Shown here one piece after another: positions 13,116-16,867 of a stretch of 62,960 bases of DNA. The notes beneath the pieces were generated by a model. It was not told the origin of the DNA, did not search any database, and saw nothing but the letters and a program-made list of their open reading frames with translations. The translations under genes were made by a program, and so were the position numbers. The stretch comes from Acidobacteriota bacterium. GTDB taxonomy: Bacteria; Acidobacteriota; UBA890; WLXD01. The stretch spans positions 1-62,960 of the forward strand of contig DASCOT010000052.1 of the NCBI GenBank assembly GCA_036012155.1. Direction: 5' to 3'. The number at the start of each line of letters is the position of its first letter. The first letter of the stretch is position 1.

Positions 13116-13724
13116 TTAGCCAGTTGAATCTGCGGTTGTCGCGCCGCGTCGCGACCGTGAAGTCGAGCTCGTCCGATCACTGGACTCCTGCGATCCCGCC
13201 AGCCTCTCGAGGAGAGGATGGAAGTGCGACCAGTCCGGTGACCGAGTGCCGCGCTGCTTGCCGGCCATGTCTTCCCACCGCCGCAGCCGCACGCCTTCGC
13301 GGTGGTACGGATTGGCCTCGAACTCGCGGCGCTCCGCAGACGACATCGGTCCTCCCTGTTTCTCGAGCGTGTATCGCGACGCTTCCGAGAGCACGGCGGT
13401 GTATTCGGCATCGGTCGCACAGAGGTAACGCTTGGCCGCCACGTGAAGCCGCGCCGGCTCGCTGACGCTGGCAGGGAAATAGCGCGCCAAGTAGTCGCCC
13501 GACACGTCGCCATGGTCGTGCACGCCATAGGCGTCATCGGACTCTTCGAGCAGGTGCCCGATGTCATGCAGCAGGCACGCCACCACCAGGTGGTCTGACG
13601 CCCCGGCTCGCTCGGCGGCCTGAGCCGTCAACAGCGAATGCTCCAGGAGGGTGACGCCTTCGCCGTAGCATTCGTGTCCGAGCCGCGCATAGAGATCCGC
13701 TAGCTGTTCGGCAATCGTGCTCAC
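13116..13724 (-). CDS. tmpB: HD-domain diiron oxygenase, PhnZ/TmpB-like
   Basis: YGEGVTLLEHSL, LLHDIGH, HDHG, LHVAAKRYLC, LSEASRYTLEKQGGPM. The start overlaps the dioxygenase stop. Confidence 0.75.
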   Translation of the reverse strand: MSTIAEQLADLYARLGHECYGEGVTLLEHSLLTAQAAERAGASDHLVVACLLHDIGHLLEESDDAYGVHDHGDVSGDYLARYFPASVSEPARLHVAAKRYLCATDAEYTAVLSEASRYTLEKQGGPMSSAERREFEANPYHREGVRLRRWEDMAGKQRGTRSPDWSHFHPLLERLAGSQESSDRTSSTSRSRRGATTADSTG

Positions 13725-14851
13725 CCTCGACCCTCCAGAACTCGCAACGTGCTGTGCAGACCGTCCTTGTCAGCGTAGCAACCCTGCAGGTGCCGCCCGC
13801 TGCCGGTGAAGCCCGTTCGCGCATGCAGCACCCGCTGATTGTCGAGCAGCATCAGATCTCCCGGCCCCAGCTTGAACGACACCTGAGCCGACGGGTCCTC
13901 GAGCAAACGGCCGAAGTGTCTGTAGGCATCGTAGAAGCGGGGCAACACCTCGACGGGCATGTCGAGCGGTGCCGCCGAACGGCTGTTGTAACGCACCGCC
14001 AGGACCCGCCCGGAAGGGTCCGTCTGGATGAGCGGCGCTGCGCTGCGCAGATCGACAGACCCCGATTCGGTGTATCGAAACGCCACCGCGTGCTCGCGCA
14101 GGAGATCGAAGTGCGGGCGAGCGTCTTCCCGCAGGCACTCAGCGGCCGAAAACCCGTCCACCAGCACCGACAGGCCGCCCTCGACGTCGGAATCCGGGCA
14201 ATGCAGGAGCTGCAGGCCCGGTACGGGATCGCGGTACGGATTGTCGGTATGCGCCCCGACCGCCATCGAGGTGTCGGCAAGATTCGCGGCGTCGCGCTTG
14301 GTAAGCACATCGAAAAGCCGGCCGTAGTTGGTCTCGCGGACGAAGCCGAAGAGCTGCACCACTTCGAGCACGGTTGCGGGGACGGTCGGCACGTTGCGCA
14401 GCAGGGCGAAGCCGTAATCTCGCACCGTGCGCAACCACCCGGCGAGCTCGGTGGGGTCGCCGGCGACGCGGTCGTAGTCGATGAATTCGAGCTTCTCTTG
14501 GTGCTCGCCCGACCACAGGGTCGGCGGCACATCCCTCGCTTCACGGGCAGCCCGGTCCAGCCGGTGGCGCTCCAGCCAGGCGACTTCGAAGACGTCCTGG
14601 ATTTGCTCTGGGTCGAAGGTTACGGCGAGACCACCATCGGAGGTCAGCGCCGCGGAGCTCAAGGTAATGCGATCCGGCAGCTGGGCGATGTCGAACAAGC
14701 GCTGCCCCTCGCGCGTGTGACGCCCACTGGGAATGTTGTCGCGTAGCCAGATCGCGGGAAAACGGCTTTGCTGACCGTCAAGCCAGCGGACCGTGAGCCA
14801 CTCGTCGTCGTGGAAGACGTCCTCGACGAGCAGCCCGGCGTGTTCGGCCAC
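13721..14851 (-). CDS. tmpA: Fe(II)/2-oxoglutarate dioxygenase, gamma-butyrobetaine hydroxylase family, TmpA-like
   Basis: WLRDN...GQRL N-domain without Zn cysteines, RETNYG, HTDNPYRDPVPGLQLLHC, DNQRVLHAR, RHLQGCY. Adjacent to the HD oxygenase. Confidence 0.8.
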   Translation of the reverse strand: MAEHAGLLVEDVFHDDEWLTVRWLDGQQSRFPAIWLRDNIPSGRHTREGQRLFDIAQLPDRITLSSAALTSDGGLAVTFDPEQIQDVFEVAWLERHRLDRAAREARDVPPTLWSGEHQEKLEFIDYDRVAGDPTELAGWLRTVRDYGFALLRNVPTVPATVLEVVQLFGFVRETNYGRLFDVLTKRDAANLADTSMAVGAHTDNPYRDPVPGLQLLHCPDSDVEGGLSVLVDGFSAAECLREDARPHFDLLREHAVAFRYTESGSVDLRSAAPLIQTDPSGRVLAVRYNSRSAAPLDMPVEVLPRFYDAYRHFGRLLEDPSAQVSFKLGPGDLMLLDNQRVLHARTGFTGSGRHLQGCYADKDGLHSTLRVLEGRG

Positions 14852-14868
14852 CTCGGCTCCTTTGCCTA

Positions 14869-16449
14869 CTAGACGAGACGGCGCTCGATCTGCTTGCCAA
14901 GCTGCATGGTCACCATGACGGCGGGGATGGTGATCGATCCGTCACTACCGCCCATGTCTATCGGGCGCTTCTCAACGTTGTTGACCACGACCACGCCGCT
15001 CGCGCCGGCATCCTGAGCGCTCTTGACCTTTTCGACGAAAAGACAGTCCCCACGGTGGACCACGGCGATCTTACCCGCAATCTCCGCACCGTTGACCAAC
15101 GGGCCGCAGGCCAACGTCGGCGTTGCGGTGCCGTCGTCGGCAAGCGCCAGGTCTCCGGCCAAGCCGGCTTGGTCGAGCGCCGGACCGAAGAACGCCCGAC
15201 CAACGATGTGGGTTCCCGCAAGGTTGTCGGGAGCGATGATCTGAATCACGTGCGCACCGCGCAACAATGGCTTCGCATCACGCCGCGTCTTGTCGCCCGT
15301 GAAAGCGACCTCACCGTCGCGTACGAGGGACTTGAGCCGCGCCTTGTTGCCGGGCAGCTCGTCCCACGTCTGGTTCCGCCGGTTATCGAGGGTCATCGTC
15401 GCCAGGATGTCGGGAAGACCCCGAAAGAACGCTCCGGTGTTCAGATCCATCAGGTTGAGGAACCCCAACCCGTGGCCCATCTCGTGCAGGGCCACGGGCA
15501 AGAACGCCACGCGCTGCGGCGGGTGGTTGTTGTCCAGCCCGTAGTACCAGCCAGTACCCGGGCCCATGCATCCCTCGTCGATCGCGGCATTGAAGGTAAT
15601 CGCGATGTCGGGGTCGTCGGCCTCACTCAGGTCAGCACGGACGATCGATTCCGCCATCGGCCCCGGATACCAGACGCCTGGAATGCCGCCGCGGAACTCC
15701 GCGGCTACGAAGAGCGGAGTCACGTGCGCCAGCGTTGCTCCCGCTGGCGAACACGAGAGATCGTCGAACCTGGCAGCGACGGTGAGCTTCGACGCGCTGC
15801 CCAGGAGCCGTCCCCAGACACGCAGCATGAACCGCAGGGCCTTGCGCCGCGCCGGCCCCAAGACGGGATCCTTGAAGCCAGTGCCATCGTCGTCCGTGAA
15901 CTGAAACTTCGCGCGGAACTTCCCGGCACGCCACCCCATGTCGCGCAGCGCCTCGTCCGTGACGTCTACCTTGTTGAACGGCAGGTCGGGCGAGCTAAAC
16001 GGCTCCATGAGCAAGTCAGGGTTGGCGCTGGGGTCGAAGTGCGACCGGCTCGACCCGGGCTCCACCGGATTGGGCATGTACAGGAGCACACGGCCGGCGT
16101 CGTCGACCCCCGTCGGGATGTCCGGGTCGAACCGCATCGTGGCGCTGACCATGGCCCGCGCCACGCGCTCGTAGTCAACGCGCTCATCGAGCTCCGTCTC
16201 CGGCGCCACAACGCGATCGCCAGACTGGAGCAGAGCGGCAGCGACGTGTCGATCTCCCTGGATGCACTCGCGACGCAGCCTGCCGTCGGGCGCCGGGCGC
16301 AGGATCATCGTGTGATCCGCCTCGCCATCTAGAAATACGCCGGTCCCGCCACCCCGCAGAGCGAAGCTGCGCTGCTGCGAGTTGATTGGCGTGGCCAGCA
16401 CCGTGATGGCAGCTAGCGCAAAGCAACAGATCGCCGTAAGACGTCGCAT
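14869..16449 (-). CDS. Secreted PA-domain zinc metallopeptidase, apparently circularly permuted
   Basis: ATG 16449 after AGGGG, then signal peptide MRRLTAICCFALAAITVLA. HEMGHGLGF; C-terminal PA domain (GKIAVVHRGDCLFVEKVKSAQDAGA..ITIPAVMV). Confidence 0.85.
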   Translation of the reverse strand: MRRLTAICCFALAAITVLATPINSQQRSFALRGGGTGVFLDGEADHTMILRPAPDGRLRRECIQGDRHVAAALLQSGDRVVAPETELDERVDYERVARAMVSATMRFDPDIPTGVDDAGRVLLYMPNPVEPGSSRSHFDPSANPDLLMEPFSSPDLPFNKVDVTDEALRDMGWRAGKFRAKFQFTDDDGTGFKDPVLGPARRKALRFMLRVWGRLLGSASKLTVAARFDDLSCSPAGATLAHVTPLFVAAEFRGGIPGVWYPGPMAESIVRADLSEADDPDIAITFNAAIDEGCMGPGTGWYYGLDNNHPPQRVAFLPVALHEMGHGLGFLNLMDLNTGAFFRGLPDILATMTLDNRRNQTWDELPGNKARLKSLVRDGEVAFTGDKTRRDAKPLLRGAHVIQIIAPDNLAGTHIVGRAFFGPALDQAGLAGDLALADDGTATPTLACGPLVNGAEIAGKIAVVHRGDCLFVEKVKSAQDAGASGVVVVNNVEKRPIDMGGSDGSITIPAVMVTMQLGKQIERRLV

Positions 16450-16507
16450 GGTCCCCCTGGTTATGGAACTTTGTCCCGGTCGTTCTTTGCCAGCCCCGGG
16501 TGTCGCG

Positions 16508-16700
16508 TTAGCGTCGGACATCGACTCGGCGGTAGGCATCGATGACCGCCAGCTCCCCGGCCCGTCCGGGACGGGAATTGCCGTGTTCCATTCCCAGGAT
16601 CCCATCGAAGCCCTTGCCGTGTATGTGACGGAAGACGTTACGGTAATTGATCTCGCCGGTGGTGGGCTCGTCCCGCCCGGGATTATCGCCGATCTGAACG
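16508..16700 (-). pseudogene. 3' remnant of a hydroxypyruvate isomerase (Hyi/TIM-barrel) gene
   Basis: QIGDNPGRDEPTTGEINYRNVFRHIHGKGFDGILGMEHG..AVIDAY is the Hyi C-terminus. Upstream sequence is unrelated and leaves no room for the rest. Confidence 0.8.
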
Positions 16701-16867
16701 ACCCTTTGGTCTAGAATCAGGCTTCGCCACGGTCGTGCGGCGTTTGTTGTCGCACGCGTCGTGCCGCGGCCCACAGCTCAAGAGCCAATGGCGGAGACCC
16801 AGCGTTCACCCGTAGCCCTGCCTCCTCGGGGCCTTTGCGCCCGCGCTTCAGTCGGACCGGCGGCGGA

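Follow-up and report, generated by a model that had tools for sequence, protein, structure and literature searches.

Circular permutation at a PA-domain insertion site in a family of putative secreted zinc peptidases

The stretch of DNA analysed here, a 62,960-nucleotide contig (DASCOT010000052.1, assembly GCA_036012155.1) from an Acidobacteriota bacterium of the GTDB lineage UBA890; WLXD01, is referred to at its full length as the window. On its reverse strand it carries a gene (Table 1) whose product combines the three modules of a family of protease-associated (PA) domain proteins in rotated order. Canonical members of this family run from a metzincin sub-domain (CAT) through the PA domain to a C-terminal sub-domain (BLK), whereas in the window protein BLK stands before CAT and PA closes the chain. 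This BLK-CAT-PA order is shared across a clade of relatives, its breakpoint coincides with the site of PA insertion at the CAT/BLK junction, and all catalytic motifs are conserved in it. We consider it very probable that its product is a zinc endopeptidase that is secreted, probably as a zymogen, and whose leishmanolysin-like metzincin design has been circularly permuted at this junction.

A search of 5.8 billion clustered proteins, in which 8000 candidates were scored, returned 1181 matches at E ≤ 1e-3, and the window protein was compared with the 120 best of them by BLASTP. About 56 aligned collinearly. About 60 aligned in reversed subject order, with query residues 186-525 on subject residues ~30-385 and query residues 101-173 on ~385-460; in these proteins the swapped second segment reached E values of 1e-11 to 1e-20, far beyond chance. 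The canonical protein P0114 exemplifies the pattern, aligning over query residues 186-522 with its residues 151-506 (E 2e-63) and over 101-175 with its residues 514-589 (E 3e-17). A preliminary description of the window, made from the letters alone, had anticipated two such segment pairs in swapped order against canonical homologues, and the comparison bears it out. The two segments jointly cover the domain, the old termini are joined and new termini have been created, the hallmarks of a natural circular permutant. As also proposed there, the breakpoint lies right after PA and the former termini are joined by a short linker: among the 77 permuted members of the first 262 proteins collected, the gap between BLK and CAT has a median of 11 residues, with both quartiles at 11. 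Canonical proteins show a median of 4 residues from PA to BLK.

To parse all 342 relatives collected, we used four profiles derived from an alignment of permuted sequences (A1), covering BLK (query residues 101-175), CAT (186-398), PA (399-525) and an N-terminal domain, NT (26-98). The order CAT-PA-BLK was found in 190 of the 342, BLK-CAT-PA in 88, and CAT-BLK without PA in 39; a further 11 are giant proteins with tandem CAT-BLK units, a class tabulated at 3.5-5.3 thousand residues and three to five CAT units, and 14 are PA-only proteins and fragments. Because the permuted order, first noticed in a single gene, is common to 88 relatives, it is a trait of a clade and not a one-off of the window gene. 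Listed one by one, giant proteins (P0121-P0124, P0136, P0140, P0142, P0143, P0159, P0195 and P0207) span 1.7-5.3 thousand residues and contain two to five CAT units with complete HExxH motifs, most of them a CAT followed directly by BLK, without PA; the CAT units are spaced by DUF11, CARDB and other Ig-like repeats, so that these proteins are multi-protease polyproteins. Since CAT abuts BLK both in the giants and in the CAT-BLK proteins, PA was inserted where CAT meets BLK, the same point at which the permutation has its breakpoint. The claim that an inserted PA domain has been turned into a terminal one therefore holds: PA lies between CAT and BLK in the 190 canonical proteins and at the C-terminus in the permuted ones.

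Canonical and permuted forms are homologous over all three modules, with 37-47% identity, shared motifs and a signal peptide in both. They differ in the rotated module order and in what follows BLK, which in canonical proteins is often an FlgD-Ig or a type IX secretion system sorting domain. The canonical arrangement that the preliminary description had given for Xanthomonadales, Massilia and myxobacteria stands as to order for the first two, since 72 of 80 genome loci are CAT-PA-BLK, including those of Xanthomonas, Lysobacter and Massilia, while the single Myxococcota locus is cut at a contig end and does not bear on it; its placement of BLK at the extreme C-terminus is only partly right, because the tail after BLK has a median of 105 residues. 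The canonical family is large: a search counts 8429 representatives at E ≤ 1e-3, of which 607 reach E ≤ 1e-30. Its members are named only as hypothetical or PA domain proteins in the sources, and our literature search for them turned up no paper with "PA domain-containing protein". In the ESM Atlas, whose leads concern the catalytic part only, one canonical cluster bears PF30956, an entry of Pfam 38.1. A homologue search with the junction alone (residues 98-262) gave 12 matches among 1114 candidates, a number unfit for counting permuted forms.

The catalytic motifs lie on both sides of the new linker. HEMGH occupies residues 322-326 (15486-15472), and the longer HEMGHGLG (322-329) falls within a model helix at 316-328, giving the HExxHxxG-on-helix arrangement of metzincins; the extended HExxHxxGxxH/D motif of the clan is absent, residue 332 being Asn. 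In BLK, the block ATMRFDPD...RDMGW comprises residues 103-173 and contains His137 (16041-16039), the histidine of SSRSH, Met148 (16008-16006) within LLMEP, and the helix DVTDEALRDMGW. H137, L146-P150, H322 and E323 are invariant in all 53 permuted sequences aligned. The BLK His and Met are likewise invariant in 79 of 79 BLK regions, and HExxHGLG (H, E, H and GLG) in 72 of 72 CAT regions.

The two halves were compared with known peptidases through two profiles. Built from ten units in which CAT and BLK are contiguous, profile A2 aligned with leishmanolysin (GP63; MEROPS M8; PDB 1LML) in two collinear stretches at a marginal E of 0.11, matching the HExxHxLGF helix and the segment GSAGSH...ELMAP...DLGF. 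With a profile of the 79 BLK regions alone (A3), 1LML ranked first among 177,635 distinct PDB sequences, again at a marginal E (0.24), in the same register as A2: His falls on His and Met on Met, in both cases 11 residues apart. We take the matched leishmanolysin residues to be His334, its third zinc ligand, and Met345, the methionine of its Met-turn. The preliminary description had placed the third zinc-binding His and the Met-turn in BLK, upstream of HExxH, and the 53/53 and 79/79 invariance together with these two marginal alignments supports that placement. Zinc ligation by His137 is thus our reading of sequence conservation and register.

The likeness to leishmanolysin extends to several features: HExxHxxGF on the active-site helix; a third His, in the window family a candidate ligand, that lies outside the extended motif, after a long insertion; a Met 11 residues further on, followed by a helix ending in D-x-G-aromatic; and the fold of the N-terminal sub-domain (Z 6.7 over 149 aligned residues). 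The window family differs in being bacterial, in carrying PA at the place of the insertion and in its marginal sequence similarity, and the window gene differs further in having the His/Met segment before HExxH. In PMC6899020, M8 is defined by HExxH, a third His and a Met-turn. Pfam Peptidase_M8 (PF01457) gave no match to the window protein at E ≤ 1, and we therefore describe the family as M8-like in design without filing it as M8. The matrixins (matrix metalloproteinases, MMPs; M10) and other metzincins share the N-terminal sub-domain up to HExxHxxG, which aligns with MMP-9, MMP-12, MMP-2 and MMP-20 at Z 6.9-7.3; they differ in that the third ligand of the window protein would lie outside HExxHxxGxxH, with Asn at position 332.

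An AlphaFold2 model built from the 53 permuted sequences has a mean predicted local distance difference test score (pLDDT) of 86 and a predicted template modelling score of 0.76, with residues 100-526 confident. VIA-align searches of 48,161 PDB representatives matched the PA domain to 2ek8 (Z 14.8, root-mean-square deviation (rmsd) 1.9, 113 residues aligned). In the CAT region, residues ~175-331 matched MMP-9 (Z 7.3, rmsd 2.9, 103 aligned) and MMP-12 (Z 7.0, rmsd 3.0, 101 aligned), as well as MMP-2 and MMP-20, and leishmanolysin 1lml aligned over model residues 174-397 on chain residues 105-313 with rmsd 3.7. Foldseek against the PDB returned PA-domain matches only, among them the VSR1 PA domain (E 4e-7). 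When BLK and CAT were co-folded as separate chains with Zn, the pair scored 0.57 and the best of 3 controls 0.00, with at least 89% contact agreement between runs and a partner pLDDT of at least 67. Of the solved complexes, 58 of 80 passed the mark used, as did 2 of the 110 mismatched pairs, and scores at 0.60 or under included only 7 of the 80 complexes plus both passing mismatches, so the separate-chain fold lends weak support to a BLK-CAT pairing. For a contiguous CAT-BLK unit, modelled from 10 aligned rows, confidence was too low for use (pLDDT 60.5, below 50 in BLK), so that a confident model exists for the permuted order alone.

The coordinates of the gene and its modules are collected in Table 1. 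All strings and positions quoted in the preliminary description are present in the translation, and its reading of an intact frame that stops where PA ends is confirmed, our PA profile extending to residue 525 of 526; a Shine-Dalgarno-like sequence stands before the start codon. A longer open reading frame (ORF) reaching back to 16605 is unsupported and not needed, since the alignments with homologues begin at residue 1 of the protein started at 16449. In the AlphaFold2 model the signal-peptide region forms a helix at residues 2-16 with low pLDDT. The sole domain recognised by Pfam in the window protein is PA (PF02225, residues 444-521, E 4.5e-18), which scores 65.6 bits where the gathering score is 23.9. 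NCBIfam NF038122 (metallo_LGF) stays below threshold (27.7 bits against a cut-off of 80) and covers residues 278-338 only, the HExxH region.

Table 1. Features of the permuted peptidase gene, in positions of the window
Feature	Position	Strand	Basis or remark
Whole gene	14869..16449	-	526 codons, then the stop codon at 14871-14869; alignments with homologues begin at residue 1
Shine-Dalgarno-like AGGGGGA	16452..16458	-	2 nt upstream of ATG; read from sequence
Putative Sec signal peptide, ~residues 1-25	16375..16449	-	MRR, hydrophobic core, then VLA/TP; predicted from sequence
NT domain, residues 26-98, putative prodomain	16156..16374	-	own profile hidden Markov model; prodomain role presumed
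BLK, residues 101-173, translocated C-terminal sub-domain	15931..16149	-	swapped high-scoring segment pair
New linker RAGKFRAKFQFT, residues 174-185, old C-terminus to old N-terminus	15895..15930	-	translation
CAT, residues 186-398, N-terminal metzincin sub-domain	15256..15894	-	HEMGHGLGF active-site helix 15486-15460; post-HExxH sub-domain 331-398
PA (protease-associated) domain, residues 399-525	14875..15255	-	terminal here; inserted in canonical relatives

The block that the preliminary description placed right behind the signal peptide does lie at 16150-15931, but it does not follow directly, since the conserved NT domain of ~73 residues (26-98) intervenes. This domain has no Pfam match and no usable ESM Atlas match, and its NCBIfam match to post-PEP-CTERM_1 is weak (E 0.0059). 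A jackhmmer search from window residues 24-100 found NT in 19 NT-BLK-CAT-PA, 15 NT-CAT-BLK and 5 NT-CAT-PA-BLK proteins, and the canonical carriers, including P0114, P0141 and P0255, adjoin the permuted clade in the trees. As NT occurs in all three architectures, with canonical carriers beside the permuted clade, it is ancestral and N-terminal in every order. The idea of a rotated gene thus holds for the CAT-PA-BLK module and not for the whole chain: the module has rotated behind a fixed signal peptide and NT, which still precede the block.

Because the signal peptide and NT stayed N-terminal, the likeliest origin is an internal tandem duplication of CAT-PA-BLK, after which the first CAT-PA would have been deleted in frame and the last BLK removed by truncation. 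A fusion of two whole genes does not fit the fixed signal peptide and NT. Tandem pairs of whole canonical genes do occur in the phylum: one locus (L083, G184:C6:190400-197400) holds two CAT-PA-BLK genes on one strand, both 657-residue frames, 2.7 kb apart, and G220:C155 holds a similar pair.

The permuted order is found in a group of relatives from Acidobacteriota. Among the 80 species-representative genome loci, 7 are permuted and 1, from Myxococcota, is cut by a contig end; 6 of the 7 permuted loci are named as Acidobacteriota, several of them as Thermoanaerobaculia. Canonical loci come from Lysobacterales (Xanthomonas, Lysobacter), Burkholderiales (Massilia), Eisenbacteria, Krumholzibacteriota, Verrucomicrobiota, Acidobacteriota and Chloroflexota. 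In the window's own genome the gene is present once. It occurs in all 4 genomes of the genus and in 6 of 10 further genomes from the family, but in none of 15 from the sister family. Of 301 genomes sampled evenly across the phylum, 39 match at E ≤ 1e-25, and by their match ranges these comprise 7 permuted forms, 26 with the canonical CAT-PA range, 3 with CAT only and 3 with PA or a fragment only.

In a phylogeny of the contiguous CAT-PA region (FastTree, 253 rows), 76 of the 77 permuted rows group together with support 96, in a clade that is nested among canonical forms when the tree is rooted on the giant units. The exceptions are the canonical P0145, which falls inside the permuted clade, and the permuted P0167, which falls outside it beside the canonical P0230. 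A single origin of the permuted order is compatible with these data and is not rejected by them.

Several results nevertheless weigh against our interpretation and bear on the alternatives to it. One alternative is that the permuted order arose several times, or reverted, with the PA junction as a recurrent breakpoint. A quick IQ-TREE search (99 rows) dispersed four of the permuted rows among the canonical forms, placing P0183 beside the canonical P0157 (SH-like approximate likelihood ratio test 97) and P0167 beside P0161 (84), so that 5 changes would be needed; the two FastTree exceptions point the same way, and the tandem canonical paralogues in G184 and G220 would provide raw material for repeat events. 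When all 33 permuted rows were forced into one group, however, the tree was 157.9 log-likelihood units better than the free quick tree (approximately unbiased test, p-AU 0.992). Since the constrained tree scored higher, the scatter reflects a suboptimal search, and we set the quick topology aside. The linker, too, is uniform in length. Repeated origin is therefore unlikely in our judgement. The proposed duplication route has its own difficulty, in that no intermediate was found among the 342 proteins, none of which has BLK on both sides or CAT-PA-BLK twice; a search for longer homologues gave no tandem CAT-PA-BLK duplicate, and a relaxed search (E < 1) no second BLK.

Other adverse points concern the zinc site. 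Model confidence near His137 and Met148 is moderate (65-76), the CAT Z-scores of 6.7-7.3 lie in the range for which the tool warns of a possibly common or generic arrangement, the leishmanolysin sequence matches are marginal, and the absence of a PF01457 match counts on the same side. Asp355, after HExxH, is invariant or nearly so in all architectures and is a possible alternative ligand. BLK might then be structural only, with the third ligand elsewhere, for example at Asp355, and the permutation would move no ligand. Against this stand the invariance of the BLK His and Met in all 79 BLK regions aligned and their match, at equal spacing and with two independent profiles, to one His and one Met of 1LML, and we regard a purely structural BLK as improbable.

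A further alternative is an assembly chimera or a decaying pseudogene, and the window genome is fragmented (239 contigs). Contigs of runs X1 and X2, which are possibly the window's source, span 14700-16650 with 0 differences. From another study, a contig of run X6 covers 15608-16028 and bridges the BLK-linker-CAT junction without differences, and a second X6 contig runs over 14700-15448, stop codon included. An orthologue with 74% identity is carried on a contig of 3.17 Mb. These contigs, together with the 88 same-order proteins from many assemblies, therefore exclude a chimera, and the suspicion of a misassembly at the junction can be dropped on the strength of unbroken assembled contigs (not raw reads). 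In one genome from the window's family (L084, G016:C2:3902600-3906200), a frameshift inside CAT splits the gene into NT-BLK-CAT(1-28) and CAT(30-216)-PA, which would be either a pseudogene or a sequencing error. Decay of this kind lends the pseudogene reading some colour; the window frame, by contrast, is intact with all motifs conserved, both junctions are identical in contigs of separate studies, and we give a chimera or pseudogene practically no credence.

The neighbourhood of the gene contains further reading frames. Directly downstream, at 13721-14851 on the reverse strand, lies a gene for a GBBH-like_N and TauD dioxygenase, followed on the same strand by a gene for an HD-domain protein (13116-13724) whose ORF overlaps that of the dioxygenase by 4 nt; this pair resembles TmpA/TmpB or PhnY/PhnZ, which break down aminophosphonates by a two-oxygenase route. 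Just upstream, an ORF of 88 residues (16508-16774, reverse strand) matches only positions 181-235 of the 249 in a xylose-isomerase-like TIM-barrel profile, short of its gathering score (E 1.2e-5), and looks like the C-terminal remnant of a truncated gene. In a metagenome-assembled genome of Pseudomonadota, an unrelated small metzincin-like ORF with HEIGHCIGLAHP (L073:5585-6403, forward strand) lies downstream of a canonical family member.

Taken together, the data are best accounted for by circular permutation of a leishmanolysin-like module at the PA insertion site. The basal form of the family has BLK directly behind CAT, and BLK, a separate sub-domain of ~75 residues, would carry the third zinc-binding His and the Met-turn. 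A large branch then gained PA at the CAT/BLK junction, and in the window branch CAT-PA-BLK was permuted there, leaving BLK before CAT through a linker of ~11 residues and PA last. The protein would be exported via the Sec pathway, after which the NT prodomain might be removed. His322 and His326 of the helix would hold the catalytic zinc together with His137, contributed by the N-terminal BLK, with Glu323 as general base and Met148 under the site, and the C-terminal PA domain may help to bind or gate the substrate, as in other peptidases. Secretion, proteolytic activity and the prodomain role of NT are predictions from sequence features.

Permutation has precedents among other peptidases. The NlpC/P60 and transglutaminase-like cysteine peptidases include permuted forms, as stated in PMC3142127 and PMC8195603; in these a catalytic residue has been shifted to the opposite side of the chain with the fold retained, as would be the case in the window protein, the difference being that they are not zinc peptidases. 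Our literature search found no circularly permuted metzincin or zincin, the lists of the CIRPIN survey (PMC13552848) lying outside the text searched. With slightly less than even confidence, we suggest that this is the first natural circularly permuted metallopeptidase of metzincin type, with the third ligand and Met-turn N-terminal to HExxH and a former insertion site turned into new termini.

If this is correct, PA has gone from an insert held by two tethers to a terminal domain held by one, and the prodomain has become attached directly to the ligand-bearing segment; the release of PA or the attachment of the prodomain could change how substrate is gated or how the zymogen is activated. The defining feature of metzincins is a linear order: HExxH, third ligand, Met-turn. 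A clade that keeps every catalytic motif in rotated order implies that this linear order is not required by the fold, which tolerates being cut and rejoined. Annotation based on motifs or profiles therefore misses or mis-splits such enzymes, and here Pfam sees only PA. The three natural states CAT-BLK, CAT-PA-BLK and BLK-CAT-PA tie domain insertion to circular permutation at one site, and the family may be useful for studies of protein evolution and for the engineering of permuted or switchable metalloproteases.

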